From: Candidatus Krumholzibacteriia bacterium
Lineage (GTDB): Bacteria > Krumholzibacteriota > Krumholzibacteriia > JAJRXK01
Direction of reading: 5' to 3'
Assembly (NCBI GenBank): GCA_029932915.1
Contig: JAOZPE010000001.1
Coordinates: 32,222-96,221, forward strand
Length of the DNA stretch: 64,000 bases
A program made the position numbers and the translations under genes. Position 1 is the stretch's first letter. Each line of letters begins with the position of its first letter. The notes beneath the pieces were generated by a model, which saw only the letters and a program-made list of their open reading frames with translations, made no database searches and was not told the origin of the DNA. Positions 1-60,028 of this stretch are shown here, piece by piece.

Positions 1-1
1 G

Positions 2-1426: not shown

Positions 1427-1471
1427 TGGCGGCGCCGGTGGTTTTCGCCCGGGCGCCTTTGGGGCTATCTT

Positions 1472-4791: not shown

Positions 4792-4799
4792 GGCGCTTG

Positions 4800-4921: not shown

Positions 4922-5584
4922 ATGCAATTCGATTCCACCCACATCACCGTCATTCTCGATCGCAGCGGATCGATGCACTCCATCCGCAATGATGTCATCG
5001 GCGGATTCAATTCCTTTCTGCAGGAGCAGAAGACCGAAGCGGACAGCGCGACGCTCACCCTGGTTCAGTTCGATTCGGTGAATCCGTACGAGCTTGTCCA
5101 CAACGAGCTTCCCCTCGATGAGGTTCCCGATCTCACCCGCCGAAGCTATGTCCCGCGCGGTACCACGCCGCTTCTCGACGCCCTGGGCCGGGGAATCCAT
5201 GAGGTCGAAGCTCGTCGGAACGAACGGGCCGGTCGGCAGAGCCCTGCGAAGGAGGTCTTTGCGGTCATCACCGATGGTCGCGAGAACGCGAGCCGGGAGT
5301 ACCGCAGGGCCCAGGTGGAGGAGATGGTGAAGGAGAAGACGGAGAAGGACGGTTGGCAGTTCGTCTTTCTCAGTGCAGACCTTTCCTCCATCAGAGATGC
5401 CCTGTCGGTGGGAATCGAAGCCGACGCCATCCTGCTCTTCAAGAAGAGCCACGAGGGAACCCACCATGCGTGGAGAACCCTCTCCGCCCACACATCGCGA
5501 TTCAGGAGGGGAGGAGTCGGCAGGGTCGCTTTCGATCCGCAGGACCGCTTGCACCCGGATGATCCGATGAGGAAACATCGATGA
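4922..5584 (+). CDS. Small cytoplasmic von Willebrand factor A (vWA) domain protein, TerY-like
   Basis: A complete MIDAS is present (DRSGSM, GTTPL, ITDGRE). The protein has no signal peptide. The gene has markedly lower GC and A/T-rich third codon positions than its neighbours. Confidence 0.7.
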   Translation: MQFDSTHITVILDRSGSMHSIRNDVIGGFNSFLQEQKTEADSATLTLVQFDSVNPYELVHNELPLDEVPDLTRRSYVPRGTTPLLDALGRGIHEVEARRNERAGRQSPAKEVFAVITDGRENASREYRRAQVEEMVKEKTEKDGWQFVFLSADLSSIRDALSVGIEADAILLFKKSHEGTHHAWRTLSAHTSRFRRGGVGRVAFDPQDRLHPDDPMRKHR

Positions 5585-11958: not shown

Positions 11959-12140
11959 CGGGACCCCCCGGAGGGCCGGGAGCGGATCTGTACGCGAAAT
12001 CATGGGAAAGGACGGGGAATGACGGGAAACCGCCCCCGTCCTTCTTGTATGGGTCGGCCTGTTCCTTGCGTATGGACCAGGGGATTCCGGAGGAAGCCCG
12101 ATCGCAGGGGCACCACCGGACAGTCAAGGAGAGGCCGATC

Positions 12141-12758
12141 ATGCCCGATCGTCAGCCCGATGGTGTCAACCACAAGCCCTTGCTCGACAATGAGCAGGCC
12201 GTCGCCAGCGTGGTGGACACCCTCAAGGCCAACGAGCCCGTGTGCGAGGAAGACCCCGTCCGTGCCCTGGCCGAGATGCAGGAATTCCTCGAGGCCCGTG
12301 GGCCCCATCCACAGCTTCTGAGCCGCATCGCCGTGCTCCAGCAGCGGCTGGGTCGGCCCGAGGCCCTGGAGACGGCCCGTGAGGCCGGCCGCCTGGCCAT
12401 CAGCCTGGGCAACACCGCCGCGGTGGCCGAGCTGCTCGCTCCATTCGGCGAGCAGTGGGACGCCCTGGGTTGGGACCAGGAGCACTGGCTCAAACTGGCC
12501 TCGTCCCAGCGCTCGTTGGGGTACCTGGAGATGGCCCAGCGGATCTACCGCCATGTGCTGGCCGACGATCCGGGCTCACTGGGTGCGATCAAGGGCCTCC
12601 TGCAGATCGCCGACAGCTACCTGCGCCAGAAGGAGACCCGCGAGCGGGCCAACGAGGTGTACGACATCCTCGACGAGCTGGCCCCGGATCATCCCTTCCA
12701 GGACTACGTGGAGATGGGACGCGAGAAGGCGGCTCGCCCGGCCGAAGCCGTGCGCTGA
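12141..12758 (+). CDS. Hypothetical alpha-helical (TPR-like) protein
   Basis: The ORF is in coding-typical GC3 frame. An AGGAG RBS precedes ATG 12141. I recognise no motif. Confidence 0.45.
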   Translation: MPDRQPDGVNHKPLLDNEQAVASVVDTLKANEPVCEEDPVRALAEMQEFLEARGPHPQLLSRIAVLQQRLGRPEALETAREAGRLAISLGNTAAVAELLAPFGEQWDALGWDQEHWLKLASSQRSLGYLEMAQRIYRHVLADDPGSLGAIKGLLQIADSYLRQKETRERANEVYDILDELAPDHPFQDYVEMGREKAARPAEAVR

Positions 12759-12851
12759 GGCCGCGCCCGTCCCCACCACCGGCCGAAGCCGTGCGCCGAG
12801 GCCGCACCCGTCGCCACCACCGGCCGCGGATCCGGCTGCGGGGGGTCTCCC

Positions 12852-13613
12852 TCAGTCCGCTTCCCCCTGCTCGGCGATCCACAGCTTCACGTCCCGCAGG
12901 AAGCGTCCCAGGACGGTGAGGCTCGCCCACAGGAAGCCGGGGAAACCGTCGCGGAATCCACCCCGGGCCACATAGAAACGCCAGAAGGTGGCCGGAGGGC
13001 TGCCCAGCAGATGTCCCAGCCGGAAGGGCCGCGGCCGGTCGGCGATCTCCAGACTGGTGTAGAGGTCCATCTTGCGCACGTAGGCGTCCACCCCTCCGAA
13101 GGTGTAGTGGTCGAGTGCCTCCTCCAGGCGTCCCACCGGCAGGCGGGGCGGAAGCACCACTCCTTCGTGGACCCGGCTGTCGGTGTAGTGGGCCCCCTCG
13201 CGCCGGAACAGCCTCAGAGGATAGTCCCGATCCAGCCCCATCGAGCGCATCTCGTGGCCCAGGATGAAGTTGCGCCGCCGCACCCGGTAGCCTCCCATGC
13301 CCACCAGTTGCTGGTTGGCCACCAGGTGTTCCCACTTGGCCGCCAGCTCCGTCGAGACCCGCTCGTCGGCGTCCAGGGCCAGGACCCAGTCGCCTTCGGC
13401 CAGTTCCAGGACCCGTTGCTTGGCATGGCCGAAGTCGTCGAAGACCCCCTCGAAGAGCCGCACCTTCGGGTGGGCCGAGGCGATCGAGAGCGTGGCGTCC
13501 CGGCTTCCGGTGTCCAGGACGACGATCTCGTCGGCCATCTCCTCCACGCTGGCCAGCGCCCCGGGGAGCTTGTCCTCCTCGTCGCGGACGATCATGGTGA
13601 CGCTCAAACGCAT
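12852..13613 (-). CDS. Family 2 glycosyltransferase
   Basis: The N-terminus is GT-A fold (MRLSVTMIVRDEEDKLPGALASVEEMADEIVVLDTGSRDAT) with a DxD-like ALDADE. Confidence 0.75.
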   Translation of the reverse strand: MRLSVTMIVRDEEDKLPGALASVEEMADEIVVLDTGSRDATLSIASAHPKVRLFEGVFDDFGHAKQRVLELAEGDWVLALDADERVSTELAAKWEHLVANQQLVGMGGYRVRRRNFILGHEMRSMGLDRDYPLRLFRREGAHYTDSRVHEGVVLPPRLPVGRLEEALDHYTFGGVDAYVRKMDLYTSLEIADRPRPFRLGHLLGSPPATFWRFYVARGGFRDGFPGFLWASLTVLGRFLRDVKLWIAEQGEAD

Positions 13614-13773
13614 GGATTCTCCCCCGATGCCGGTCGGCCGATGGGCTCAGGCTTGCCCCCGGCCCCTGTCGGTACTTCCTTGGGGCTCTGCCGCAGGACA
13701 GTATCGGCGCCGCCGGGGCCGGGCGTCAACGCCGCGACCCCCGGATGCGGTCTTTTCACAGGAGCAGGACAGG

Positions 13774-15003
13774 ATGGGCATCACGCAACGACAAGTGGAA
13801 GAAGCGCTGAAGACGGTGAAGTATCCGGGCTTCAGCCGGGACATCGTCTCCTTCGGACTGGTTCGGGAGATCCGCGTCGAAGGGGGCAAGGTGCACGTAC
13901 TCGTCGAACACCGGATCGACGACGCGGCCACCCTGGAGACCTTCCAGCAGGAGGCCCAACGGGCTCTCGATGGGATCGAAGGGGTCGAGGAGGCCCATAT
14001 CGAGTGGCGGGGCAAGGCTGCCTCCGAAGGGAAGGGCGATGAGAAGGGCACCCCGGCCGGGAAGCCCGAGGTATCGACCGCTTCCGCCGGCGCGTCGGCG
14101 AAGACCGCGACCAAGGGCGGCTACGTGGCCGCTCCCTCGCTCTCCACGCCTTCGCCGGATCCATGGGCCGATCAGGCGCCCCTGCCCGGGGTCAAGGCGG
14201 TCATCGCCGTGGCCAGTGCCAAGGGAGGAGTCGGCAAGTCCACGGTGGCCACCAACCTGGCCCTGGCCCTGTCGGCCAAGGGCAAGAAGGTCGGTCTGCT
14301 CGACGCGGACATCTACGGTCCGAGTCTTCCCACCATGATGGGAGTGAACGAGCGGCCGGAGGTGCAGGACGGCAACAAGATCCTTCCGGTGATGAAGGAG
14401 GGCATCGCGTGCATGTCCATCGGTTTCCTGGTGCCCCAGGACAAGGCCATGATCTGGCGCGGTCCGATGGTCATGGGGGCGATCAACCAGTTCCTGGACG
14501 ACGTGCGATGGAACGGCCTGGACGTGCTCATCGTCGATCTGCCCCCGGGAACCGGTGACGCCCAGTTGTCGCTGGCCCAGAAGGTTCCCCTGACCGGGGT
14601 GATCATGGTCACCACACCCCAGGACGTCGCGGTGATCGATGTCGTCCGCGGCATCCAGATGTTCGAGGAGACCAAGGTGCCCATCGTGGGCATCATCGAG
14701 AACATGAGTGTCTTCGTCTGCCCCCACTGTGGGCACGAGGAACACATCTTCGGCGAGGGCGGGGGCAAGCGGACCGCCGAGCGTTTCGGTGTGCCCTACC
14801 TGGGCGGTATCCCCCTGGAGCCCGCGGTGGTGGCCACCGGGGACGAAGGCCGCCCGGTGGTGGTGGCCCGGCCCGACAGCGCGTCGGCCAAAGCATTCCT
14901 GGCCGTGGCCGAGCAGGTGGAGCAGTATCTGCAGACCCCGCACGGGGGCCATCACCACGGACATGGACATGGCGGGCACAGCCATGCCGGTCACGGTCAC
15001 TGA
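13774..15003 (+). CDS. apbC: Fe-S cluster carrier ATPase Mrp/ApbC with N-terminal MIP18/DUF59 domain and C-terminal His/Gly-rich tail
   Basis: A DUF59-like N-terminus (EALKTVKYPGFSRDIVSFGLV) is followed by a deviant Walker A (SAKGGVGKST) and the CPHC cluster-ligand motif. The tail is PHGGHHHGHGHGGHSHAGHGH. Confidence 0.85.
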   Translation: MGITQRQVEEALKTVKYPGFSRDIVSFGLVREIRVEGGKVHVLVEHRIDDAATLETFQQEAQRALDGIEGVEEAHIEWRGKAASEGKGDEKGTPAGKPEVSTASAGASAKTATKGGYVAAPSLSTPSPDPWADQAPLPGVKAVIAVASAKGGVGKSTVATNLALALSAKGKKVGLLDADIYGPSLPTMMGVNERPEVQDGNKILPVMKEGIACMSIGFLVPQDKAMIWRGPMVMGAINQFLDDVRWNGLDVLIVDLPPGTGDAQLSLAQKVPLTGVIMVTTPQDVAVIDVVRGIQMFEETKVPIVGIIENMSVFVCPHCGHEEHIFGEGGGKRTAERFGVPYLGGIPLEPAVVATGDEGRPVVVARPDSASAKAFLAVAEQVEQYLQTPHGGHHHGHGHGGHSHAGHGH

Positions 15004-15089
15004 GACCGTTCCACCGGCGACCGATGAACACAGCGGCGTGACCATGGGGGCCACGCCGCCCGATCTTCCCCATCCGCTCGGCAGCGACG

Positions 15090-15548
15090 ATGAAACTGAT
15101 CGAGTACACCAGCGAGGAACTCTGTCTGGCCGGCCTGCGCGTGCCGGACAAGGAGAGCTGTCTCGATCGCATGTGCGCGCGGCTGGAGGAAGCCGGTCGC
15201 CTGAAGGAGCGGTCTGCGCTCCATCGGGCTCTTTTGGAGCGTGAGAAGGTGGAATCGACGGGCATCGGAGGCGGGATCGCCCTTCCCCATGCCCGCTGTG
15301 AGGACTTCGACGGCCACGCGGTGGCCATCGCCCATCTGGCCGAGCCCATCGACTACGGCGCTCCCGATGGGAGGCCGGTCGACCTGGTCTTCCTGTTGGC
15401 CGGATCCAGCCGCCGTCCCGGGCAGCAGCTTCGGGTCCTGGCCCGGATCTCCACCCTGGTGAGGATCGACTCCTTCCTGGCCGAGCTGCGGGCGGCGTCC
15501 ACCCCGGAGGCGATGTGCCGGGCCCTGCGGAAGGCCGAGGGGCTCTAG
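15090..15548 (+). CDS. ptsN: PTS EIIA(Ntr)-type regulatory protein (PtsN paralog 1)
   Basis: The EIIA type-2 active-site motif is present (ESTGIGGGIALPHAR). Confidence 0.7.
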   Translation: MKLIEYTSEELCLAGLRVPDKESCLDRMCARLEEAGRLKERSALHRALLEREKVESTGIGGGIALPHARCEDFDGHAVAIAHLAEPIDYGAPDGRPVDLVFLLAGSSRRPGQQLRVLARISTLVRIDSFLAELRAASTPEAMCRALRKAEGL

Positions 15549-15845
15549 GGCCCCGAGGGCGCAAGGAGATTCTCCGCCACTTGCTGCAGGTCGGGGGCAC
15601 TCCGGTGTTCCGGCCGGGTTGGGGTCCGTTCCCGGCGGCCGTCCTTTCCCCTTCCCCCCGGCGGGGCCATTTGCTAGTGTGGATTTCCTTTCCCATCCCG
15701 CGGATCGGTTTCGGCCTGCATTTCCGGTGGAGTCCTTGCCTCGAGGACGGCCGCCGGGGTGAGGTCGCTCTCCCGGAATTCCATCGGCGGCCTCCCTCCA
15801 TGGGCCGCCAGCCAAGGAGCTGGACCCTTGCGACGCACTTTCGGA

Positions 15846-18680
15846 ATGGTCACCACGACGACTGCTTCGACTCTTTCGATCCTTCTCTTCCTTCTTGTGC
15901 TGAGCCCCAACCTCGCGTCGGCCCAACCGACGGTGACCGATGTGCAGACCCCCGATCTGCTCTCGGTGCTGATCACCTTCTCCGAGGCGATCGATCCGAC
16001 GACGGGCAACACGGTTGCCAACTACCTCATCTACGAAAAGGATGACATCGGCAATCGTCCGCCCATCTCCTCGGCGGTCACTTCCGGCTCGCAGGTGACG
16101 CTCGCCCTGGATGCCGCGCTCACCGACGGCATGGTCTATTCGCTGCGTGTGCAGGGTGTGGAGAACACCTCGGGCGAGGTGATGGAGACGCAGATCGTCG
16201 ACTTCACCGCGTCGGGCCCGGACATCACGCCACCGGAGGTCACCGGGGCCTCGGCCGTCGACGACCAGACGGTGCGGATCGACTTCAACGAGGCCATCGA
16301 TGCGGGCAGCGCCGCCGACCCCGGTTCCTATCTGTTGTATCCCACCGCGCAGCCGGGCAGTCCCTTGACCATCACCGCCATCGGCACGGCCACCTCCAGC
16401 GTGACCCTCACCCTCGGTTCCTCCCTGAGCGACGGTGTCGAGTACACGGTGGAGGTCAGTGACGTCGAGGACCTCGCAGGCAACGCCATCGAGGACAACA
16501 ACACCGCCACCTTCACCTACACCGCCTCGTCTGCCGCCACCCCCATCGCCGACATCCAGGCCGATCCGGATTCGTGGGAAGGTCAGGTGGTGACCGTCGA
16601 GGGTGTGGTCTACATCCCCAGTGATTACCGGGGGACGGTCGTCAGCGGCTTCATCCAGGACGAGTCGGGCCGCGGCATCAACCTCTTCGGAACGGGGATG
16701 GATGTGGCGGCCCTGCAGACCGTGGGCAACCGGGTGCGGGTCACCGGCACGGTCACCTCGTACTTCACCACGGTGGAGATCCAGGACCCCACCGAGGTCA
16801 CCCTCATCAGCAGCGGCAATCCCCGTCCCACGCCGGTGCAGTTGGGAACGGGAGCGGCAGCGTCTACCCAGTGGGAAGGCACTTTCATTGAAGTGAGCGG
16901 GTCCATTCAGAGTCAGGTGGTTGCCAATGGTGCCGTCAACTACACCGTCAATGATGGGAGCGGTCCGATCATTGTGCGGGTGGTCGACACCCTGGGCGCG
17001 CCGAGCTTCTCCAACGGCACCACCATCACCGCCCGGGGAGCGGGCGCTCAGTACCAGAGCGACTACCAGGTGCTGGTGGGCCTGGCCAGCGATGTCTTCG
17101 AGGGCAACGGAGGGGACACGACGCCACCGCAGGTGATCAGCGCGAGTGGCTCGAACGAGACCTCGATCGTGGTGAATTTCAACGAGGCGCTCGATCCCAC
17201 CACCGCCCAGGTCTCGGCCAACTACGAGGTATATGAGAGTTCAGCCCCGTCGAACACCCTCACGGTGACTGCCGCTTCGCTGACGGGCAGCCGGGTCACC
17301 CTCACCCTGGCCTCGGCCATGAACGAGGGCACCTCCTACACGGTGACGGTTTCCAATGTCGAGGACCTCGCTGGCAATGTCATCGCCGGGAACAACACCG
17401 CGACCTTCACCTATACCCCATCCTCGGGGGCCACACCCATCGCCGACATCCAGGCCGATCCAGAGGCTTACGAGGGTCAAGAGGTCACCGTCGAAGGCGT
17501 GGTCTACATTCCGACGAACTACCGGGGAACGACCACCAGCGGCTTCATCCAGGATGAGTCCGGCCGCGGGATCAACCTCTTCGGCCGGGGCATGGACGTC
17601 CCTGCCCTGACGACGGTGGGCAACCGGGTGCGGGTGACCGGAACCATCGACATCTATTTCACCACGGTGGAGCTCACCAGCCCCACCGAGGTCACGCTCA
17701 TCAGCAGCGGCACGCGGATCCCGCCCACCCAGTTGAGCACCGGGGCGGCGGCGAACCACCAGTGGGAGGGCACCTTCATCGAGGTCTCCGGACCCATCCA
17801 GAGCCAGGCCGTCGCCGGCACCGCCATCAACTACACGGTGGACGACGGAAGCGGCCCGATCATCGTGCGGGTGGTGGACACCCTGGGTGCGCCGAGCTTC
17901 GACAACGGGACCACCATCACCGCTCGGGGAGCGGGTGGCCAGTACCAGAGTGACTTCCAGGTGCTGGTGGGCCTGGTCAGCGACATCTTCGAGGGCACCG
18001 GCGGCGACCTCACGCCGCCGCGGATCGAACGGGCCAGCCTGGAGACCGCGACCACGGTGATCATCGACTTCAGTGAGGGAGTCGAAGCCACTTCGGCCAC
18101 CACCGCCGACAACTACGAGGTGTTCCGGACCAACAGTCCCGGCGAGACGGCCGGGGTCACCGGCGTGGAGTTCGTCTCGGGCAGCAACAACCGCGTCCGT
18201 CTGCAGCTCGACCGCAGCGTGAGTCTGGACGAAGGCTGGTCGGTGCGGGTGCGCAACGTGGCCGATCTCAACGGCAACGCCATTTCGCCGAGCGGGGTGA
18301 CGGCGCGGCTCGAGGCCCTTCTCAAGGAAGAGATCGACCTGGAGGGACCGCCCTTCACCTTCCTGCCTCGCGACGGGGAACGCTATCCGTTGACCATCAA
18401 TCTCACCTCGGAGCTGGTTGACCACAACGCCGAGGTGGTCCTGAGGATCTTCAACATGAACGGGGCCCTGGTACGGACGCTCTATGACAGCCGGGTGGCT
18501 CCATTGAGTTCCGTCTTCAGGGACAACCGGGCGACCATCGAATGGGACGGTACCGATGACTACAAGGAATGGGTGCCGGCCGGAGCATACGTGGCGCACC
18601 TGCAGGTGCGCGAGGCTGGAGGTAGCGGTTCCAATGAGGTCCATATTCCCGTGGTCGTGGCCACGCGCCTGGATCGATAG
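15846..18680 (+). CDS. Large secreted surface protein: triplicated bacterial Ig-like (SbsA/Big_5-type) plus OB-fold module, with a C-terminal T9SS/FlgD-Ig-like sorting domain
   Basis: It has a signal peptide (MVTTTTASTLSILLFLLVLSPNLASA); the track ORF starts at 15759. A ~298-aa module is repeated, each copy containing TPPxV...NYxVY Ig-like domains and an OB-fold (WEGQVVTVEGVVYIP..GFIQDESGRGINLFG..VGNRVRVTG). The C-terminal ~80 aa (LRIFNMNGALVRTLYD...IEWDGTDD...GAYVAHLQV) fit the Por_Secre_tail/FlgD_ig pattern. Confidence 0.8.
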   Translation: MVTTTTASTLSILLFLLVLSPNLASAQPTVTDVQTPDLLSVLITFSEAIDPTTGNTVANYLIYEKDDIGNRPPISSAVTSGSQVTLALDAALTDGMVYSLRVQGVENTSGEVMETQIVDFTASGPDITPPEVTGASAVDDQTVRIDFNEAIDAGSAADPGSYLLYPTAQPGSPLTITAIGTATSSVTLTLGSSLSDGVEYTVEVSDVEDLAGNAIEDNNTATFTYTASSAATPIADIQADPDSWEGQVVTVEGVVYIPSDYRGTVVSGFIQDESGRGINLFGTGMDVAALQTVGNRVRVTGTVTSYFTTVEIQDPTEVTLISSGNPRPTPVQLGTGAAASTQWEGTFIEVSGSIQSQVVANGAVNYTVNDGSGPIIVRVVDTLGAPSFSNGTTITARGAGAQYQSDYQVLVGLASDVFEGNGGDTTPPQVISASGSNETSIVVNFNEALDPTTAQVSANYEVYESSAPSNTLTVTAASLTGSRVTLTLASAMNEGTSYTVTVSNVEDLAGNVIAGNNTATFTYTPSSGATPIADIQADPEAYEGQEVTVEGVVYIPTNYRGTTTSGFIQDESGRGINLFGRGMDVPALTTVGNRVRVTGTIDIYFTTVELTSPTEVTLISSGTRIPPTQLSTGAAANHQWEGTFIEVSGPIQSQAVAGTAINYTVDDGSGPIIVRVVDTLGAPSFDNGTTITARGAGGQYQSDFQVLVGLVSDIFEGTGGDLTPPRIERASLETATTVIIDFSEGVEATSATTADNYEVFRTNSPGETAGVTGVEFVSGSNNRVRLQLDRSVSLDEGWSVRVRNVADLNGNAISPSGVTARLEALLKEEIDLEGPPFTFLPRDGERYPLTINLTSELVDHNAEVVLRIFNMNGALVRTLYDSRVAPLSSVFRDNRATIEWDGTDDYKEWVPAGAYVAHLQVREAGGSGSNEVHIPVVVATRLDR
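16227..18011 (+). repeat. Intragenic tandem duplication: two ~891-894-bp units plus a partial third, encoding the Ig-Ig-OB module
   Basis: Near-identical DNA stretches recur, for example cccatcgccgacatccaggccgatcc at ~16540 and ~17440, and ggcttcatccaggacgagtc at ~16650 and ~17545. Protein units start at TPPEVTG (16227), TPPQVIS (17121) and TPPRIER (18012). Confidence 0.85.
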
Positions 18681-18693: not shown

Positions 18694-19611
18694 ATGCATA
18701 CGAAAAGAACCTCGATTCTCCTCCTGCTTCTCTTCGGTCTCCTGCTGCTCGGCAGCAGTGCAAGAGCCGCGTTCGACGACATCGCGGTGAGTCCCCGGGC
18801 CCGCGCCATGGGCGAGGCCTACGTGGCCGTCGGCGGCGATGCCTGGAGCTGGTACCACAATCCGGCTCTCCTGCCGTGGATCACTTCACCGGAGATCGCC
18901 GCGGCGGGCACCGAACCCAACGGCGGTGGTTACAACTCCCTGGGGACCATCGGCGGCATCCTTCCGGTGAAGGGTGGCTGGACGGGTCTGGCGGTCGGCC
19001 TGCGCCGCTACGGCGTCGACTACCGGGATGTCTCCCTCCTCACCGAGTACACGATCTCGATCGCGCAGGGCATCCAGTTGTTCAAGGACGACGCTTCGGG
19101 CGCTTCCTTCGGCTGGGCCCTCAACTTCTACAACCTCGATCTGGGCCAGAGCATCGGTCTGGCCGGGGACGGCACCGACGGCATCGACCCGGGCAACGCG
19201 TGGGCGATGGGCCTCGATCTCTCCGCGGTGGTTCAGGTGTGGGACCGCACCAAGGTGGGTTTCAACGCCAAGAACATCAACAGCCCGACCATCGGCGACG
19301 AGAACGAGGAGTTGCTGCAGCAGTTCAGCGTGGGGCTGAGCTATGAGCCGTACGAGGCGGTCATCACCGCGCTGGACATCCGCAGCCGGCCGGGGGAGGA
19401 CTTCCGTCTCCATGCGGGCGCCGAGTTCGGGGTGCTGGAGGTGCTCGATCTGCGAGCGGGTCTGGAGACCGATCCCGACAAACTCACCGCGGGTTTCGGC
19501 GTGCACCTGTACGGCGTCACCCTCGACTATGCCTTCTCCACCGGCGGCGGCGTTCTCGAGTCGACGCATCAGTTCGGCTTGAGCTATCGCTTCTCGGGAG
19601 GGGGGGAGTAG
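18694..19611 (+). CDS. Outer-membrane beta-barrel protein, FadL/PorV-like family
   Basis: It has a signal peptide (MHTKRTSILLLLLFGLLLLGSSARA). The N-terminal motif SPRARAMGEAYVAVGGDAWSWYHNPALL matches the FadL/PorV-type signature (ARAxxMGGA...D...YNPA). The protein has alternating amphipathic strands and ends in ..YRFSGGGE. It sits 13 bp after the giant gene. Confidence 0.6.
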   Translation: MHTKRTSILLLLLFGLLLLGSSARAAFDDIAVSPRARAMGEAYVAVGGDAWSWYHNPALLPWITSPEIAAAGTEPNGGGYNSLGTIGGILPVKGGWTGLAVGLRRYGVDYRDVSLLTEYTISIAQGIQLFKDDASGASFGWALNFYNLDLGQSIGLAGDGTDGIDPGNAWAMGLDLSAVVQVWDRTKVGFNAKNINSPTIGDENEELLQQFSVGLSYEPYEAVITALDIRSRPGEDFRLHAGAEFGVLEVLDLRAGLETDPDKLTAGFGVHLYGVTLDYAFSTGGGVLESTHQFGLSYRFSGGGE

Positions 19612-19612: not shown

Positions 19613-22168
19613 GTGTACGCTCCGCGCAAACAACTGGGGCGCGGAATTCTCGTGGCACTGGCCTTCAGCCTGTTGCTCGCGGCGCCGGTCCGCGCTCAAT
19701 ACGAGCAGGGAGACTCCCGGCGAGAGGCCATCGAGCCGAGGCAGCTCAAGGGCGAGGTGGACCTGGCCGGAGGGAAGCTCGATCTGAATCGCGCGACCCG
19801 CGATCAGATCCGTTCCCTTCCCATTCCTCCTGAAGTCGCCGACGCCATCTGGGAATACCGCACCTATCGCAGTTACTTCAGCTCCATCTACGATCTGAGC
19901 AAGGTCGAGGGCGTCACGCCCGAGATGATCAAGGAGCTGATCCCCCTGGTGGCCACCATGCCGCCGGAGAAGCAGGAAGCCTGGGTACGTCGCTTCGACG
20001 CCTCGTTCCGGGCGATGCAGCGATTCCTGAGCCGTGAAGGGGCCAGCGAGGAGCTCGCCGACGAATACCGCGACCTCCTGCTGGAACCGCGCAACATCAA
20101 CGATCTGTCCATCTATGCCCTGGAGAGCTACCAGAACGTCTCCCCGGTGGATGCCACCGCCATCCTCAAGGCGCGCAAGAGGTCGGGCGGCATCCAGAAC
20201 CAGCGGCAACTGCGCAGCGTCGACGGCCTGACCTACTGGGCCTACCGCAACCTGCGGGACTACGTCGTCTACGAACCGCCGGCGGGGGAGATGAAGCTGC
20301 ACGGTGGGGCCCAGGTGCAGGTGTACAACACCCCGTACATGCTCGACGACCGGGACATCCTCACCGAGGACTACGTGGGGGCCCCATCCCGCGACTTCGA
20401 CGAGGGGACGCCCTACGGGATCAAGAATCTGGACAGCGCGAATCCGGCCATCCTGAGCAAGTTGAAGCTGCGGCTGGGCAACCAGTGGAAGGCCGGCATG
20501 AGCACCTTCCGCAATGTCGGTGAGCGCAACGTGGCCGAGACGCTCAAGGGCTTCATCGAGTGGCACAACCCGCGGGCGAAGTCCTACCGCCTGGACAAGT
20601 TCGTGCTGGGCAATTTCCGGATCGCCTTCGGACAGGGCCTGGTGATGGACAACACCGACTACTTCCTCAGTCGCAAGACCGGCACGGGCTTCAACAAGCG
20701 TCCACGGGGCTTGATCGGTGACATGAGCCGATCCTACGAGTTCGCCCTGCGCGGCGCGGCCGCAGAAGCCGCCCTGGGGAATCTGCACGTCGTCGGTTTC
20801 TACAGCAACACCGACAAGGACGGCATCCTCAACCTCGACGAGAACGGCAACGCGGTGAGCATCAACAAGTACGTGGTGGGCAAGCCGCGGTTCGAGAACA
20901 GTGAATACGAGTTGATGAACACCGCCATCCGGCGGGGCGCCTTCGACGAGGAACTCTACGGTGGTGTTCTGCACTATCAGTTCGTGCCGGGAACCTTCGT
21001 GGGAATCTCGGGCTACGAGGCCCGCCACGACCTTCCCTGGGATCCGAAGGTCTCCACCCTGGTGACCGAGGTAGGTCGCTTGGAGGCTCGGGACAACGAA
21101 CTGTTCAACGCCTACGATTCGACCCAACTGGGCAACTTCCGACGCGTTCTGGGCGCTGAATTCCAGACCGTGATCAGCAACGTCGCCCTGGCCGGCGAGT
21201 ATGCCAAGCTCGACTCGAACCCCACCGGCGGCATCTTCTCCAATGCTCCCGACGCCATGGTGTTCACCGGCTACACCCAGTGGTCGAACTTCAACATCTT
21301 CGCGCTCTATCGTGACTACGATGTGGGCTTCGACAATCCCTATGCCCGGCCGTTCGGGCAGGACAACCGTTACGAGCAGACCTTGCTCGGCGATCCCTTC
21401 CGTTTGAATTCACCTCTGTACAGTTGGCTGGAGTCGACCACGCCGCAGACCAAGGCCGAGCAGGGGATCTTCCTGCAGACGCGCTACCGGATCAGCCGTC
21501 AGCTCACGATCTCCGGCCTGGAATTCGATCAGTGGAAGCGGAAGGCCGACGGACAGAGCCAGCATCGCTACACCTTGCGTCTGGAGTACGCGCCGATCTG
21601 GCCGCTGCGTTTCCGTCTGCGTGAACGCTACAGCGACCGGGCACCCGAGGAGCTGAGCGACAACCGGCGTTTCAAGAGCTGGGATACGCGGCTCGAGCTG
21701 CGGGCGCGGCTGAGCGGCTACGACGAATTGCGCTTGCTCTACAGCAATACCAACACCCAGTTCGCGCCGCGGCCCCGTCTGGGAGGACCGGCCGATCCGG
21801 ACGGCAGCAACTTCACCCCGCTGGCGCAGGAAGCCGCCCCGGGCCAGGCCATCCAGGCCATGCTGGTGCACAACGTCAACGATCGTCTCCAGTTCACGTT
21901 CAGCACCGAGCTCTACGAGGGCTTCCTCTGGAACTTCGAAGACAACGAGTTCGTCGTGGTCGACGGCAACGGCATGCGCAACTGGTTCCTCATCCAGAGC
22001 CGACTCGATGACCACTTCCTCGTTCGATTCAAGATGACCAACGATCGTCAGCGGACCCGTGACAACCTGGAGATCCGCGATTATGCCAATTCCACCCCCA
22101 GCGAGTTGCGCGCGGGCGACAAGCGTCAGTACACCGCTTTCCGCCTCCAGCTCGACTACAACTTCTAG
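19613..22168 (+). CDS. Outer-membrane beta-barrel protein with two N-terminal ComEA-like helix-hairpin-helix DNA-binding motifs
   Basis: It has a signal peptide (LVALAFSLLLAAPVRA). HhH motifs are present (DLNRATRDQIRSLPIPPEVADAI, and DLSIYALESYQNVSPVDATAILKARKRSGGIQNQRQL). A ~650-aa Tyr/Gly-rich region follows with alternating strands, and the C-terminus is ...QLDYNF (aromatic terminal residue typical of OMPs). The track start is GTG. Confidence 0.6.
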   Translation: MYAPRKQLGRGILVALAFSLLLAAPVRAQYEQGDSRREAIEPRQLKGEVDLAGGKLDLNRATRDQIRSLPIPPEVADAIWEYRTYRSYFSSIYDLSKVEGVTPEMIKELIPLVATMPPEKQEAWVRRFDASFRAMQRFLSREGASEELADEYRDLLLEPRNINDLSIYALESYQNVSPVDATAILKARKRSGGIQNQRQLRSVDGLTYWAYRNLRDYVVYEPPAGEMKLHGGAQVQVYNTPYMLDDRDILTEDYVGAPSRDFDEGTPYGIKNLDSANPAILSKLKLRLGNQWKAGMSTFRNVGERNVAETLKGFIEWHNPRAKSYRLDKFVLGNFRIAFGQGLVMDNTDYFLSRKTGTGFNKRPRGLIGDMSRSYEFALRGAAAEAALGNLHVVGFYSNTDKDGILNLDENGNAVSINKYVVGKPRFENSEYELMNTAIRRGAFDEELYGGVLHYQFVPGTFVGISGYEARHDLPWDPKVSTLVTEVGRLEARDNELFNAYDSTQLGNFRRVLGAEFQTVISNVALAGEYAKLDSNPTGGIFSNAPDAMVFTGYTQWSNFNIFALYRDYDVGFDNPYARPFGQDNRYEQTLLGDPFRLNSPLYSWLESTTPQTKAEQGIFLQTRYRISRQLTISGLEFDQWKRKADGQSQHRYTLRLEYAPIWPLRFRLRERYSDRAPEELSDNRRFKSWDTRLELRARLSGYDELRLLYSNTNTQFAPRPRLGGPADPDGSNFTPLAQEAAPGQAIQAMLVHNVNDRLQFTFSTELYEGFLWNFEDNEFVVVDGNGMRNWFLIQSRLDDHFLVRFKMTNDRQRTRDNLEIRDYANSTPSELRAGDKRQYTAFRLQLDYNF

Positions 22169-22178: not shown

Positions 22179-23543
22179 ATGCGTGGCAGTGTTTGCAGAA
22201 GCATACGGATCCTGACCCTCGTCCTGGCGGCGGCGTCGCTTCTCGCCTCCCCCGCGCGCGCATTCACCACTCTGGATGCGGCATACGGTACGCCATGGGA
22301 TGCGGAGAACCCGCGCACGGCGGCCATGGGTTCGGTCGGGGCGGCTCTGTACCAGGGGGCGGGAAACCTCGTCTCGAATCCGGCGATGCTCGCCTACATG
22401 GACGGCCGCATCCTGGTGGAGCTCAACGGGGGATTTCTCCAGGCCAACGAGGACCGCTATCAGCCCCTGTACAATTCCTTCGACTCGTACGTGACCGATA
22501 CCGTCATCGCGAGCAACCGCAACAGCTACGGGCAACTGCAGGGCGGTGTCCTGTTCAGCCTTTCCCGCGAGCATGCGATGAGCTTCGGGATCGGCGTGTT
22601 CGACCGCTACATCTTCGACTACGACTACAGTGAGGAGATCCGCGATCCCTCTCCCTTCGTCGACACCCGCGACGCGGTCATCCAGTTGCGTCAGTACCAT
22701 ATCGAGGGAAGACTCCGCTCGATCACCGCGGGCTGGGGGATGGAAGTGATTCCGCGCCTGTCGCTGGGTCTGAGCGTGAACTACTACCTCGGAAAGTTGC
22801 AGCACCGGGTGGCGACCTCGACCACGCCTACCTACGAGAACACCTTCCTGAGCGATCCGGGCCCGGCGGCCTTCGACCACGATCTCGACGGCTGGAGTGT
22901 CGCGCTGGGTCTGGAGGGAAGGGTTTCCGACCGCCTCGATCTCGGAGTGAACTTCGAGAGCGGCTTCACCGTCGAGGGGGCCATCACCTCCATGGATTCG
23001 ACGATCGGGACCTGGGTGCCCTACGACCGCGAGGAGACCGTGCTCGCCGTGGGTGGGGAGGATGTGAAGATCAAGTATCCTTCGACCCTGCGGGCGGGGA
23101 TGACCTTCCATCCGCGCAACCAGCTCAAGACCACCTTCTCGTTCGACCTGGTCCGCCGCTTCTGGGAGGGCGTTTCCAGCGATAGCTACCGTACGGCGGC
23201 CTTTGGCGGCGGATACACGCTGCGGGACACCTGGGACGTCCGGGTGGGTCTGGAGCATGTCTTCTACAACAAGGTGCCGGCCCGCTTCGGTTTTCGTTAT
23301 CTTGAGAACTACGCCGACCCCGAGTCACAGCGGTCGATCTTCTCGGCGGGGACGGGTTGGTCGACGGCGGGTCTTACCCTGGAAGCGACGGTGCAGTACC
23401 ACCGGCAGACCACCCGCCAGGACTATCTCTTCGACCGCACCCTGGAGTGGACGGACCGTCCGCCGGACGTTCCCGACGACGGGCTCTCCAAAGTGGAGGA
23501 TGGAACGGTGACCCTCCTGCTGGGGGTTTCCCGGCGCTTCTAG
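22179..23543 (+). CDS. Outer-membrane beta-barrel protein, FadL/PorV-like family (second copy)
   Basis: It has a signal peptide (ILTLVLAAASLLASPARA). The N-terminal motif is ENPRTAAMGSVGAALYQGAGNLVSNPAML. The C-terminus is ...LLLGVSRRF (terminal Phe). Confidence 0.6.
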   Translation: MRGSVCRSIRILTLVLAAASLLASPARAFTTLDAAYGTPWDAENPRTAAMGSVGAALYQGAGNLVSNPAMLAYMDGRILVELNGGFLQANEDRYQPLYNSFDSYVTDTVIASNRNSYGQLQGGVLFSLSREHAMSFGIGVFDRYIFDYDYSEEIRDPSPFVDTRDAVIQLRQYHIEGRLRSITAGWGMEVIPRLSLGLSVNYYLGKLQHRVATSTTPTYENTFLSDPGPAAFDHDLDGWSVALGLEGRVSDRLDLGVNFESGFTVEGAITSMDSTIGTWVPYDREETVLAVGGEDVKIKYPSTLRAGMTFHPRNQLKTTFSFDLVRRFWEGVSSDSYRTAAFGGGYTLRDTWDVRVGLEHVFYNKVPARFGFRYLENYADPESQRSIFSAGTGWSTAGLTLEATVQYHRQTTRQDYLFDRTLEWTDRPPDVPDDGLSKVEDGTVTLLLGVSRRF

Positions 23544-23555: not shown

Positions 23556-25010
23556 ATGACGCTCTTGGAGCGCGGAATTCGTTCGTTCATCGGCCGTGCC
23601 GCCGTTGTCTCTGTGACGGCGGCGCTGCTTCTGCTGGGCGCCTGCTCGTCGAAGGCACCGGTGGAGGGAGTGATCCTTCCACCCAGCGATTCGATCAGCG
23701 TGGTCGATCGCAGCGTACTGTGGCACACCGACGAGCCGGCCCGGGGTCTCGTGCGCTACGGTCTCGATCGTGGGCATCTCGATCACGTCGCCTATCCCGC
23801 CGCGGCCGCCCGTGAGGACCGCTCCTTCGTCAAGGAACACCGGGTGACCCTGCTGGACGTGCAGGCCGGCCGGACCATCTACTACCAGGTGGGGGTGGAG
23901 ACGAGTCTCAGCGGCTGCCGTTTCACCGCCATCGATTCCTTCGTCTCGCAGCTGGGTCCGGCGCCGGGCGTGCTGACGTCGACCATGGTCCACATCGGCT
24001 TCGGTGATGCGCACGTGTTGACCATGCCCACCAACGGACGCCATGTGCTCATCGACGCCGGTACGCGCGAAGCGGCCGTCTCGGTGCGTCAGTATCTGCT
24101 GGAGCATGGCATCGACGCCTTCAGCGGCATGCTCGCCACCCACGTGCACATCGATCACATCGGAGGCATCCTCGGCTACGATCGCGGTGGCATCCTGGCG
24201 AGTCACCCGCCTTCGATCTTCTACGATTCGGCACGCAAGGACGTGGGCTCGGAGAAGTACGCCTACAGCGAGGTGCAGTCGATGATCGCCGAGGAGAACG
24301 TCGACGAAGCCGTCCTGCATCGCTTCGATACCTCATCGAGCGTGGCGGCGCTGCAATGGGATCCCGAGGTCGAGGTGACGGTGTTGAACAGTGGCACTCC
24401 CGACGACTACGTCCCGGACGGCTACGAGGGTACGGACATCAACAACGAGTCGATCGTGTTGCTCATCGCCTACGGCGACGTCCGCTTCGTCATCGGCGGC
24501 GACGCCGAGCAGGAGGCCGAGGCCAGCATGCTGGCGGCCTTCGCTCCCGCGGACCTGGAAGTGCAGTACTACAAGGTGCAGCACCATGGTCTCTCCGATG
24601 CCTCGAGCACGGCGTGGGTGAACACGTTGAGGCCGCGGGTGGCGTTCATCCCCAACACGGCGTGGTCGTGGGACGGAGACCTCGATGGGGCCATCAGCCA
24701 GACCACGGGACGGCTGGAGGCCATCGGAGCGCAGATCTATGTCATCGACGACGTGCCGATGATCGGTGAGCCCCGCTCGATGGGCATCCAGCACAACATC
24801 ACCTTCGCCACCGACGGTGTCAGCTATGAGGTGCGGGTGGAGACGGCACAACAGACGGCACCGCACAAGATGGCCTCCACCGCCTCGTGTGTCCGCGGCG
24901 ATCCCGACCTGCAGAATCTCTTTCCTCTCCATGACCACGAGGGCGATTCCGGCCTCGACAGGGTGAAGACCGACTCTCCGCCGCCGACGGCGGACAGCTC
25001 CCAGGAGTAG
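23556..25010 (+). CDS. Lipoprotein with purple-acid-phosphatase-N/Fn3-like domain fused to a ComEC-type metallo-beta-lactamase-fold domain (putative nuclease)
   Basis: It has a lipobox (LLLLGACSS). The ComEC/Rec2-type MBL pattern is present: VHIGFGDAHVL....GRHVLIDAGT...AFSGMLATHVHIDHIGG and NESIVLLIAYGDVRFVIGGDAE...YYKVQHHGLSDAS (compare vGqGDa..LID.G / lilTH.d.DHiGG / lKvgHHGS..S). Confidence 0.75.
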   Translation: MTLLERGIRSFIGRAAVVSVTAALLLLGACSSKAPVEGVILPPSDSISVVDRSVLWHTDEPARGLVRYGLDRGHLDHVAYPAAAAREDRSFVKEHRVTLLDVQAGRTIYYQVGVETSLSGCRFTAIDSFVSQLGPAPGVLTSTMVHIGFGDAHVLTMPTNGRHVLIDAGTREAAVSVRQYLLEHGIDAFSGMLATHVHIDHIGGILGYDRGGILASHPPSIFYDSARKDVGSEKYAYSEVQSMIAEENVDEAVLHRFDTSSSVAALQWDPEVEVTVLNSGTPDDYVPDGYEGTDINNESIVLLIAYGDVRFVIGGDAEQEAEASMLAAFAPADLEVQYYKVQHHGLSDASSTAWVNTLRPRVAFIPNTAWSWDGDLDGAISQTTGRLEAIGAQIYVIDDVPMIGEPRSMGIQHNITFATDGVSYEVRVETAQQTAPHKMASTASCVRGDPDLQNLFPLHDHEGDSGLDRVKTDSPPPTADSSQE

Positions 25011-25014: not shown

Positions 25015-26697
25015 ATGCGCGCAGTTTCCGCTCTCGCTATCTTGTTCATTCTCGCCGCGACGGGTCTGGCCGTCTCCGATGCTTCGGCCGGAGAGACCGT
25101 GCGCCTTCATCTCATCTGGACCAACGACATCCATGGCCACGTGGGCAATGAGGAAGCGCGCTTCATGAATCCCGAGTTCCCCCCGCCTCTGGGTGGGGGG
25201 GCCTCGGCGGCGGCCTACGTGCAGAAGGTGCGCGCCGCGTGTGAGAAGGACCCCGACTCGGACGTGCTGCTGCTCGACGCCGGCGATACCTGGCAGGGCG
25301 CCCCGGTGGGCACGCTCAGTGCGGGCCGGGTCATGGAAGCTTACTTCGATGCCATGCAGTACGATGCGGTCACCGTCGGCAACCACGAGTTCGACAAGGG
25401 CCTCGACGTTCCCATCCGCATGTCACAGGCCATGCGGCAGAAGTTCGTCTGCGCAAACATCTACAAAGAGGGCACGGAGGAAATGGTCGACTGGACCGAG
25501 CCCTACCGGGTGGTGGAGAAGGCCGGCCTGCGCATCGGCATCGTCGGGGCGGTCACTCCTTCCACGAAGTCGATGGCCTTCGCCGAGAACGTGGCCGGGA
25601 TCGATTTCGGCCCGATTGCCCCGGTGCTGGAGAAGTACCGTGACATCCTTCTGGAGCGCGAACACGTCGATCTGGTGGTGGCTCTGATTCACGAGGGTTT
25701 GCCCTACAACCCGGACGAAGGCTGGGAAGATCTGGTGCGACGGGTGAAGGAGGGCGTCGATCTGCGGCTGCATGCGCGCAGTGCCATGGAGATCGCCCAC
25801 GTGGTCCACGGGATCCCCATCTTCGTCGGCGGCCACACCCACCGCGGCTACCGCAAGCCGTGGATCGATCCGGTGACCCAGGCCATGGTCTTCGAGACCT
25901 TCGGCAACGGCTCATCGGTGGGACACGTGATCATCCTCATCGACCGCCCCACCGACCAGGTGGTCGGTTACGAGAGCCCCCGGCGCGACGGCACCCTGGT
26001 GACCCTGTTCGAGGACGAGTGGTGGCCGGATGAGAAGATGGCGGCCGAACTCGAACCCTATATCCACGAAGCCCGGGCCGGTCTGGACGAGACGGTGGGG
26101 CGCTCGGCGGTCGAATTGAGCCGCCGCGGCGGACCTCTCTCGCGGATGGGGATCCTCGTGACCAGCGCCATGCTCGAGGCCACCGGGGCCGATTTCGCCT
26201 TCTCCAACACCGGCGGCCTGCGCAGTGATCTGCCTCCGGGCCGGATCACCCTGGGCGACCTCATCCGGGTCCTGCCCTTCGGCAACGCCCTGGCCACCGT
26301 CGAGATGGACGGAGCCATGATCCGCAAGATCTTCGAACGCAAGAGCGGGCGTCGCAGCAGCGGCATCGCCTTCTCCGGGGTGAAGGTGGTCGTCGATCCG
26401 GACGCCCCGCAGGGACGCCGGGTCCTCGAGCTGACCCTGCTCGACGGCACGCCCATCGTGCCGGGGCGGCGCTACCTCGTGGCGACCTCGGACTTCCTCA
26501 TGGAGGGCAACAGCGGCCTGGACTTCCTGGCCGAGATCCCGCCGGATCAGGTCAACTACACCGGCATCCTCACCCGCGACGCCCTGGCCGAATACCTGCG
26601 CAAGCACAGCCCGGTGGCGCCTCATGCGGACGACCGGTGGAGGGAGAAGGTGGGGGGGACGCCCGCCGACTATCTGCAGACCCCGGCCGTCCAGTAG
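25015..26697 (+). CDS. Secreted bifunctional metallophosphatase/5'-nucleotidase (UshA-like)
   Basis: It has a signal peptide and calcineurin-like motifs (LIWTNDIHGHV, DAGDTWQG, GNHEFD, GGHTH). A C-terminal 5'-nucleotidase substrate domain is present (FSNTGGLRSDL..GNAL). Confidence 0.85.
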   Translation: MRAVSALAILFILAATGLAVSDASAGETVRLHLIWTNDIHGHVGNEEARFMNPEFPPPLGGGASAAAYVQKVRAACEKDPDSDVLLLDAGDTWQGAPVGTLSAGRVMEAYFDAMQYDAVTVGNHEFDKGLDVPIRMSQAMRQKFVCANIYKEGTEEMVDWTEPYRVVEKAGLRIGIVGAVTPSTKSMAFAENVAGIDFGPIAPVLEKYRDILLEREHVDLVVALIHEGLPYNPDEGWEDLVRRVKEGVDLRLHARSAMEIAHVVHGIPIFVGGHTHRGYRKPWIDPVTQAMVFETFGNGSSVGHVIILIDRPTDQVVGYESPRRDGTLVTLFEDEWWPDEKMAAELEPYIHEARAGLDETVGRSAVELSRRGGPLSRMGILVTSAMLEATGADFAFSNTGGLRSDLPPGRITLGDLIRVLPFGNALATVEMDGAMIRKIFERKSGRRSSGIAFSGVKVVVDPDAPQGRRVLELTLLDGTPIVPGRRYLVATSDFLMEGNSGLDFLAEIPPDQVNYTGILTRDALAEYLRKHSPVAPHADDRWREKVGGTPADYLQTPAVQ

Positions 26698-34033: not shown

Positions 34034-34051
34034 ATCTTCTTCCTCTCGAGA

Positions 34052-59982: not shown

Positions 59983-60028
59983 CCGGGCTGGCCCAGCCAG
60001 GACGAGAGGGGAATCCCTGCGGCCTTGT

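Follow-up and report, generated by a model that had tools for sequence, protein, structure and literature searches.

We analysed a stretch of 64,000 nucleotides (hereafter the window) from a Candidatus Krumholzibacteriia bacterium (GenBank assembly GCA_029932915.1, contig JAOZPE010000001.1, positions 32,222 to 96,221 of the forward strand), in which a gene ending at position 18680 encodes a repetitive surface protein built of immunoglobulin-like (Ig) and OB-fold domains. This gene is the first of six co-directional genes on the plus strand (Table 1). Their successive gaps of 13, 1, 10, 12, and 4 nt indicate a single operon, and a 307-nt gap separates its last gene, for a 5'-nucleotidase, from the next one. 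Judged by eye, each of the six products has a lipobox or signal peptide. Between the surface protein and the nucleotidase lie genes for a PorV/PorQ-like outer-membrane barrel, an 851-aa outer-membrane protein joining ComEA-type helix-hairpin-helix (HhH) domains to a large barrel, a FadL-type barrel, and a metallo-beta-lactamase (MBL) lipoprotein. An earlier description of the locus made from the letters alone (the sequence-only reading) had two PorV/FadL-like barrels flanking the surface-protein gene. Both are present downstream, but they flank the 851-aa HhH barrel, which that reading did not mention. It likewise passed over the MBL lipoprotein and the 5'-nucleotidase, which together with the HhH barrel point to the capture and scavenging of nucleic acid.

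Table 1. Features of the surface-protein gene and of the operon that it heads (window coordinates)
Feature	Position	Strand	Basis or remark
Surface-protein gene	15828..18680	+	950 aa from TTG 15828; 944 aa from ATG 15846
Sec signal peptide, MVTTTTASTLSILLFLLVLSPNLASA/Q	15846..15923	+	read by eye from the translation
Big_5 Ig-like domain 1 (aa 27-125)	15924..16220	+	outside the duplicated unit; 35-36% identity to the Ig domains in modules 1 and 2
Module 1 (aa 126-423)	16221..17114	+	Big_5 Ig 16221-16520, OB-OB unit 16521-17114; self-alignment
Strain-mosaic patch, second OB of module 1 (aa 341-376)	16826..16973	+	148 nt; 42 of the 48 differences in the gene against strain contig L025
Module 2 (aa 424-720)	17115..18005	+	Big_5 Ig 17115-17414, OB-OB unit 17415-18005
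Big_5 Ig-like domain 4 (aa 721-815)	18006..18290	+	35-38% identity to the module Ig domains
FlgD-Ig/T9SS-CTD-like beta-sandwich (aa 833-944)	18342..18677	+	ends ...PVVVATRLDR; family alignment, HMM scans, hhalign
305-aa PorV/PorQ-like outer-membrane barrel	18694..19611	+	signal peptide; NF033709 55.9 bits, E 5e-15
851-aa outer-membrane protein	19613..22168	+	signal peptide, two ComEA-type HhH domains (aa ~55-220), barrel (aa 229-850)
454-aa FadL/TodX-family barrel	22179..23543	+	Toluene_X (PF03349) 33.5 bits, GA 29.7, profile positions 30-381 of 421
484-aa MBL lipoprotein	23556..25010	+	lipobox LLLGAC; Lactamase_B 34.1 bits, GA 22.7; TIGR00361 positions 444-635, E 1.6e-13
560-aa secreted UshA-type 5'-nucleotidase	25015..26697	+	last operon gene; 5_nucleotid_C 118.2 bits, Metallophos 30.7, both above GA

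The surface protein is encoded by a single long open reading frame (ORF) in which the ATG at 15846, the start assumed in the sequence-only reading, is in frame. The ORF and its end at 18680 stand, but translation probably begins at the TTG at 15828, with the ATG internal. An AAGGAG motif (15814-15819) lies 8 nt 5' of the TTG, a 99% identical public protein of 950 aa (P0001) has its start called at the same position, and the added residues (MRRTFG) give the signal peptide a positively charged RR n-region.

The layout is that of a surface protein, with a signal peptide followed by an Ig domain, two Ig-OB-OB modules, a further Ig domain, and a C-terminal beta-sandwich. Pfam Big_5 (PF13205) scored 114.8 bits in four stretches, above its gathering threshold (GA) of 23.6. 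A repeat search found an internal direct repeat in the gene with offsets of 891 and 894 nt, and blastn of the gene against itself returned 733 nt at 77.9% identity (E 6e-168), far beyond chance. These results confirm the tandem DNA duplication with a period of ~891-894 that had been read from the sequence. Tandem Repeats Finder reported no repeat in the gene because the period exceeds its 500-nt limit. Module 2 is a copy of module 1 (70% amino acid and 78% nucleotide identity), with 208 of 298 residues identical (69.8%) and the Ig portion more diverged than the remainder. The three near-identical ~298-aa modules originally described thus reduce to two full modules, and the third copy is limited to the ~95-aa Ig part at 35-38% identity.

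We modelled the OB-OB structure from an alignment of 37 homologous units, each comprising the ~198 residues after a module Ig domain. The AlphaFold model of aa 226-423 (pLDDT 96.2, pTM 0.91) shows two consecutive five-stranded barrels. Its top Foldseek matches in the PDB were nucleic-acid binders with tandem OB folds, namely Teb1 AB, the HIN-200 domains of AIM2, IFI16, p202, and p204, RPA70, Stn1, and the anticodon-binding domain of asparaginyl-tRNA synthetase (AsnRS), with tandem-OB matches at E 1e-6 to 1e-4 and a TM of ~0.4 for the OB pair. Compared with the PDB, a sequence profile of the unit found RPA32 (E 6e-5); a weaker match was to the N-terminal part of an endonuclease/exonuclease/phosphatase (EEP) nuclease of solved structure. 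Positions 16-111 of the ExeM/NucH model NF033681 matched the full protein at E 5e-8, a tandem-OB match of the YhcR-like kind; the full-length score was 32 bits against a cut-off of 300. The unit also occurs twice, at 56.9 and 29 bits, in a protein that combines a lamin-tail domain (LTD) with an EEP nuclease (P0071). As modelled, these are genuine OB folds, of the type known from the ExeM/NucH/YhcR nucleases, and the proposed resemblance to the OB domains of extracellular nucleases is borne out. The module order is another matter: the model and Foldseek give Ig-OB-OB where Ig-Ig-OB had been read.

Ig domains, OB-OB units, and the C-terminal domain (CTD) make up the entire sequence, and the surface protein contains no catalytic EEP domain and no match to PF03372. 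Since the model shows two barrels and NF033681 matches without its catalytic part, we take the module to be Ig-OB-OB and the protein to be non-catalytic. In the nucleases Xds and ExeM, deletion of the OB region abolishes nuclease activity, and the LTD is dispensable (PMC6746945, PMC6085458).

The CTD is a conserved domain of ~110 aa across the family, with the consensus TFLPRxGExYPIT...LRIFDLxGRLVRTLxDSR...WDGRDxxxExVPAGxYVxHL...PVVVATRLxR, and it ends six residues or fewer from the C-terminus in 61 homologues. The sequence-only reading had assigned it to the Por_Secre_tail/FlgD-Ig pattern of type IX secretion systems (T9SS) and proposed a hidden Markov model (HMM) check against TIGR04183 and PF13860. 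Simple membership is refuted by that check: TIGR04183/PF18962 matched neither the full protein (E<=1) nor the isolated CTD (E<=0.01; TIGR04183 cut-off 23 bits), and FlgD_ig (PF13860, GA 27) scored the full protein at 12.3 bits and the CTD by itself at 20.7 bits. CHU_C (PF13585, GA 27) gave the CTD 19 bits. Among 30 CTDs of relatives, FlgD_ig matched 18 (best 1e-11), TIGR04183/PF18962 matched seven (best E 1e-3), CHU_C five, and TIGR04131 two.

The assignment survives as homology. The CTD region of the PorU model was matched by 26 of the 30 family CTDs and that of PorZ by 5, and tblastn matches in Bacteroidota genomes were PorU C-termini, one of them followed by porV. Aligned with hhalign to nine Bacteroidota PorU CTDs, the family gave a probability of 98.1% (E 1.2e-13) over the central 79 columns, and its profile matched FlgD (E 2e-7) and the Porphyromonas gingivalis PorU CTD (E 5e-4) in the PDB. 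By these comparisons the CTD clearly belongs to the FlgD-Ig superfamily and is a divergent homologue of genuine T9SS CTDs, with its nearest counterparts in PorU and PorZ, whose CTDs are not cleaved. The homology, with the signal peptide read by eye, makes it a C-terminal Ig-like beta-sandwich on a predicted Sec-exported protein. The terminal motifs of T9SS type A CTDs, an 'NPF'-type strand and a last strand with Lys (e.g., KLVILK), are absent from the consensus. An exhaustive profile search found 97,947 representatives of the fold at E<=1e-3, the top matches being giant proteins with 5-23 internal copies. The fold alone is not diagnostic of T9SS because it belongs to so large a superfamily. 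The subtype, in turn, was confined to the head of the six-gene cassette in ~1.5 Mb of sampled loci.

The 305-aa barrel encoded immediately downstream belongs to a family annotated as hypothetical in the sources. All 38 members matched the PorV/PorQ model NF033709 (best E 1.2e-22) and 4 of 38 matched PorP/SprF, from which we conclude that the barrel is, by profile similarity, a distant member of the PorV/PorQ superfamily.

We then compared the cassette across genomes. The closest, metagenome-assembled genomes of Candidatus Krumholzibacteriota at 66-68% identity, have the same gene order without the MBL gene; relatives at 38-51% identity keep the order and some include the MBL gene. When the HhH barrel served as the query, the same cassette turned up in loci that bear the labels Gemmatimonadales and Krumholzibacteriia. 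A metagenome scan gave 80 loci at 34-75% identity, whose neighbouring genes were scored with HMMs built for this analysis; the counts take in only loci long enough to hold the neighbour in question. A PorV-like gene lay directly upstream of the HhH barrel in 53 of 53 loci, and an ORF ending in the CTD lay directly upstream of the PorV-like gene, again in 53 of 53. Downstream of the HhH barrel a FadL-like gene was present in 56 of 58 loci, followed by the 5'-nucleotidase in 30 of 30, with the MBL gene between these two in 3 of 30. The window, L021, L022, and L028 have the MBL gene; L001-L003, L024, L026, L027, and many others do not. The strict adjacency of the CTD gene, with the superfamily match at E 5e-15, strengthens the earlier suggestion that the PorV-like neighbour is a dedicated carrier or anchor, a role that we regard as predicted.

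The passenger varies, consisting of OB-OB units in 21 loci and of LTD repeats in 27, while the CTD subtype stays constant through the exchange (70-147 bits). In two Gemmatimonadales-labelled loci, L026 (5040-9101) and L028 (6715-9081), two to four tandem LTD repeats of ~270-300 aa replace Ig-OB-OB ahead of the same CTD subtype, and these are an independent case of module amplification. In the two most divergent loci, L105 and L108 (34-35% identity), the genes for the CTD protein, the PorV-like barrel, and the HhH barrel are retained, and no FadL-like or 5'-nucleotidase gene was detected in the 8.7-10 kb that follow downstream. These three genes may be an older core of the cassette.

These data bear on the view implicit in the sequence-only reading, namely that we are dealing with ordinary cargo of the T9SS type A/FlgD-Ig kind, such as an adhesin or an S-layer-like protein, that is secreted by the general T9SS, whose barrels are its carriers, whose link to nucleic acid is absent, and whose HhH barrel and nucleotidase neighbours are incidental. 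The homology of the CTD to T9SS CTDs, the PorV/PorQ-like neighbour, the repetitive Ig-rich architecture typical of adhesins, the acidic surface, and the type A CTD proteins found in related genomes all fit this view. It does not account for a CTD that falls under the TIGR04183 and PF13860 cut-offs and whose subtype is restricted to cassette heads, nor for passengers, OB-OB or LTD, that are accessory domains of ExeM-type nucleases. The neighbours are also hardly incidental, given intergenic gaps of 1-13 nt that argue for one operon and synteny of 53/53, 56/58, and 30/30 across 34-75% identity. On balance we consider the ordinary-cargo explanation unlikely.

Relatives that carry the cassette probably have a T9SS at their disposal. 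Type A CTDs above the TIGR04183 cut-off (34-42 bits) lie near cassettes in L024, L031, and L088, L097 has a PorV/PorQ protein at 142.9 bits (cut-off 90), and L076 encodes a PorU-like protein; ORFs of these loci other than the cassette's own CTD gene gave only weak matches (26-45 bits) to the cassette CTD profile, several of the ORFs with type A CTDs among them. Because relatives carry these type A CTDs, PorV/PorQ, and PorU-like proteins, it is very probable that lineages with the cassette possess a T9SS that handles ordinary type A cargo, and the cassette CTD and its barrel would form a separate, private pair. We found no statement on T9SS in Krumholzibacteriota in the open literature searched.

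Several cassette loci contain a second protein of ~640-1000 aa, encoded at 5557-7470 in L024, 2154-4115 (minus strand) in L031, and 7983-10994 in L088, and present also in L027, L066, and L032. It combines a divergent ExeM-type OB-OB unit with a canonical T9SS type A CTD (TIGR04183 34-42 bits), and its N-terminal region of ~340 aa, which has no family match, could represent a catalytic domain that has so far escaped recognition. For the 637-aa neighbour in L024, comparison of the sequence with the PDB yielded no useful match.

A further possibility is that export and assembly of the CTD protein are the task of the three barrels, acting as a self-contained device, mini-T9SS-like or two-partner-like, with the 851-aa barrel as translocon, the PorV-like barrel as receiver, and the nucleotidase as a separate function. 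The CTD subtype co-occurs strictly with all three barrels while the passenger varies, as such a device would predict, and the docking of PorV on the SprA translocon in T9SS offers a precedent (PMC12618676). On the same side, the family of the 851-aa barrel has no annotated function. The translocon SprA, a barrel of 36 strands, is however unlike the predicted barrel of 24-26 strands. An export device also leaves the HhH/ComEA domains and the invariant 5'-nucleotidase without a role, and the type A CTD and PorQ/PorU-like proteins of cassette-bearing relatives suggest that a general T9SS is probably there to do the work. We therefore hold this explanation to be highly improbable.

The N-terminal region of the 851-aa protein matches HHH_3 (PF12836) at 55.4 bits in two stretches (GA 27) and the full ComEA model TIGR01259 at 40.7 bits (cut-off 152; E 2e-10), so that it is not a full ComEA. 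The AlphaFold model (pLDDT 77.8, pTM 0.74) places a helical HhH region before a barrel of ~24-26 strands, for which Foldseek returned generic large barrels only (MtrB, SlpA, FimD, and TonB-dependent receptors, TM 0.25-0.32). The family has at least 202 homologues.

This protein invites the idea of a pilus-independent DNA uptake route, in which the OB units would catch DNA, the barrel would be the channel, the HhH domains would ratchet DNA inwards for transformation or import of whole DNA, and the MBL would degrade one strand. Outer-membrane barrels normally have their N-termini in the periplasm, which would put HHH_3/ComEA domains, matched above cut-off at the N-terminus of the large barrel, in a suitable place. 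The MBL has its closest likeness in the nuclease domain of ComEC, the barrel is in the size range of ushers and LptD, and its family of at least 202 members is conserved. No close structural relative of the barrel was found, however (TM 0.25-0.32), and the HhH hairpins are non-canonical. The MBL is optional, and the cassette includes no inner-membrane ComEC, no DprA, and no other competence genes. A 5'-nucleotidase kept in 30 of 30 loci fits degradation to nucleosides and not the import of intact DNA, and we judge uptake of this kind to be quite improbable. A related and more ambitious proposal is a new, self-standing outer-membrane machine for acquiring nucleic acid, with a 'fishing line' of nuclease-derived OB or LTD modules on the private CTD-PorV-like pair feeding DNA or RNA to the ~24-26-strand barrel and the fused HhH domains pulling the polymer through without a type IV pilus or secretin. 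We regard this as distinctly unlikely. If true, it would be a DNA import pore of a previously undescribed kind in Krumholzibacteriota/Gemmatimonadota-like bacteria.

Of the remaining products, the 454-aa barrel matched BamG (50 bits) and PorV_fam (38 bits), both under cut-off, in addition to its FadL/TodX family, and the MBL fold of the 484-aa lipoprotein most resembles the C-terminal nuclease domain of ComEC. Because OB and LTD domains, the two kinds of passenger, serve ExeM-type nucleases as accessory domains, and because the operon combines ComEA-type HhH domains, a ComEC-like MBL, and an invariant 5'-nucleotidase, we propose nucleic acid as the substrate. In our preferred reading, the protein binds nucleic acid at the surface while a cognate PorV-like barrel holds it there, and the operon lets Krumholzibacteriota and their relatives capture, digest, and feed on extracellular DNA or RNA; we give this reading roughly even chances of being right. 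Here the surface protein would cross the inner membrane by Sec and then be exported, probably by a T9SS-type route, after which the PorV/PorQ-like barrel encoded 13 nt downstream would retain it on the surface through the CTD. Its OB units, or the LTD repeats of other lineages, would bind DNA or RNA at the cell surface, and the 851-aa barrel with its ComEA-type HhH domains may hold or admit nucleic acid or oligonucleotides. Where present, the ComEC-like MBL lipoprotein would cut nucleic acid, the 5'-nucleotidase would liberate nucleosides and phosphate, and the FadL-type barrel may be a further shuttle or channel. The data establish the domain identities, the duplication, and the structure and conservation of the operon; the nucleic-acid binding, the CTD-barrel pairing, the secretion route, and the direction of transport are inferred.

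A number of observations count against the scavenging proposal. Nucleic-acid binding is predicted from the fold and from homology to nuclease accessory domains, and OB and LTD domains can bind sugars or proteins too. The OB-OB units are strongly acidic, with net charges of -12 and -13 and a family median of ~-12, and the surface protein has a pI of 4.1, unusual for a DNA binder, in a proteome that is acidic overall. The HhH hairpins read IPP and GVT where the consensus is GIG. A search around the cassettes for EEP nuclease genes came up empty, most cassettes are without a recognisable endonuclease, and the MBL gene was present in only 3 of the 30 loci long enough to score it. Nucleoside-salvage genes adjoin the cassette in L024 only, among the sampled loci, and for that reason we dropped them as strong support. 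On the secretion side, the CTD lies below every curated T9SS/FlgD cut-off, its first and last strands, the site of the known T9SS motifs, do not align to PorU CTDs, and its fold is widespread as an internal repeat. The 305-aa barrel scored 55.9 bits against the NF033709 cut-off of 90, and a scan of the ten largest other ORFs in the 64-kb window revealed no component of a T9SS.

The number of OB-OB units differs among homologues. Two CTD-bearing proteins have one unit, 11 have two, six have three, and seven have four, and the top identity between units of the same protein ranges from 35% to 98% (the latter in P0002), which indicates repeated and partly recent duplications. One protein 71% identical to that of the window (P0015) has a single unit. 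The sequence-only reading had named this gene a likely hotspot for copy-number variation, and between species the expectation holds.

Within the species, comparison with a 99.5% identical strain contig (L025) showed 83 mismatches over 17.5 kb, 48 of them in the surface-protein gene and most of those concentrated in one patch (Table 1). Many of the patch differences are synonymous. A diversity-generating retroelement was rejected as their cause, given the lack of adenine bias and the many synonymous changes, and gene conversion from module 2 was ruled out as their source at 72-82% identity. The patch appears to be a recombination mosaic and looks like an imported tract in a surface-exposed repeat.

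The surroundings of the operon add some context. The GC content is 63-72% across the window, which produces many long spurious ORFs overlapping real genes. One of these, a 681-aa ORF on the minus strand (13756-15801), has no family matches and was rejected as an antisense artefact of GC-rich coding DNA; opposite it lie real plus-strand genes for an Mrp/ParA-type ATPase (within 13297-15003) and a phosphotransferase system (PTS) EIIA-2 protein (15090-15548). Its apparent conservation in L001-L003 stems from the opposite strand. Genes around the cassette are also syntenic in distant relatives (L021, L022, L026, and L028), among them the upstream genes at 12000-15548 (STAS, glycosyltransferase-2, Mrp/ParA, and PTS-EIIA) and, after a gap of ~200-300 nt downstream of the cassette, a ClpX-like AAA_2 ATPase (27005-28405). 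In L024, the region directly upstream of the cassette (1-5358) encodes a NupC-type transporter, a phosphoribosyltransferase, an amidohydrolase, an adenosine deaminase, a uridine kinase, and a purine/uridine phosphorylase. Elsewhere in the window, two adjacent large TPR-repeat proteins of 500 and 1275 aa, without other recognisable domains, are encoded on the minus strand at 32531-37879, and the GC fraction at 60001-64000 is 0.71-0.72 against 0.63-0.69 in the rest. Rfam and tRNA scans of the window found nothing. A promoter and terminator scan was uninformative, with no promoters and one terminator-like site, fewer than expected from shuffled sequence.

In soils and sediments, much phosphorus, nitrogen, and carbon is stored in extracellular DNA and RNA, which are major pools of these elements. 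To our knowledge, the outer-membrane steps by which Gram-negative bacteria use them are poorly known beyond a few Proteobacteria. The operon is a concrete and widely conserved candidate system in uncultured lineages of the FCB group, and its parts are directly testable, from binding by the OB or LTD passengers to the pairing of CTD and barrel and the conductance of the HhH barrel. It would extend the T9SS principle of a cognate CTD and shuttle beyond Bacteroidota, and its repeats show, in a natural setting, how the modules of a surface protein evolve in copy number (1-4 units) and how recombination makes mosaics of them.

All the component domains are already known, as is the pairing of a CTD with a dedicated barrel in Bacteroidota. 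We found no description of the cassette in the open literature searched. By that literature, the new elements are the fixed cassette of five to six genes, a CTD subtype and a PorV/PorQ-like subfamily missed by curated models, a large outer-membrane barrel with ComEA-type HhH domains fused to it, and the use of nuclease accessory modules as a stand-alone surface protein.

The nearest precedent for the CTD-barrel pairing is T9SS type B cargo, which works with cognate PorP/SprF barrels (PMC9143113, PMC12618676), as in SprB-SprF of Flavobacterium johnsoniae and PG1035-PorP of Porphyromonas gingivalis. In both cases the cargo gene adjoins a gene for a ~300-aa barrel of the PorV/PorQ/PorP superfamily, with one cargo per barrel and a variable passenger on a conserved CTD. 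The cassette CTD gene is linked to its ~300-aa barrel in 53 of 53 loci, yet the barrel is PorV/PorQ-like (38/38) and not PorP/SprF (4/38), unlike that of type B cargo, and the CTD is below the type B cut-offs (CHU_C 19 bits vs 27; TIGR04131 in 2/30 relatives). The cassette pair also sits inside a larger fixed operon with the HhH barrel, the FadL barrel, and the nucleotidase, in a Krumholzibacteriota/Gemmatimonadota-like lineage and not in Bacteroidota. The PorU-PorV and PorZ-PorQ pairs are similar in that the cassette CTD best matches the CTDs of PorU (26/30; PDB 6za2) and PorZ (5/30), that the best family of the neighbouring barrel is PorV/PorQ, and that porU and porV are adjacent in Bacteroidota too (L007). 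They differ in that the cassette passenger is neither a sortase nor a carrier of anionic lipopolysaccharide (A-LPS), that 'TFLPRxGE' and 'PVVVATRLxR' stand where PorU CTDs have their N-terminal 'NPF' strand and their C-terminal 'KLVILK' strand, and that the cassette scores stay under the family cut-offs.

ComEA resembles the 851-aa protein in its HHH_3 domains (55.4 bits; TIGR01259 E 2e-10), whereas in the cassette these are fused to a ~24-26-strand barrel, have their hairpin glycines replaced, and stand without competence genes nearby. By analogy only, Bacteroidota polysaccharide utilisation loci likewise combine a non-catalytic surface binder, outer-membrane barrels, and exo-hydrolases in one operon. 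The cassette, however, lacks a SusC/SusD pair, nor was the signature of a TonB-dependent transporter found in it; its likely substrate is nucleic acid, and its binder would be anchored by CTD and barrel and not by lipidation. The closest likeness in the passenger is to the ExeM, Xds, NucH, and YhcR nucleases, secreted, cell-associated proteins that combine an LTD and an OB-OB unit with an EEP or SNase domain. The surface protein shares their tandem-OB unit, and sister cassettes use LTD repeats. It differs from them in lacking a catalytic domain and in presenting one to four binding units on Ig spacers ahead of a CTD, with any hydrolytic activities placed on separate genes of the cassette (MBL and 5'-nucleotidase).

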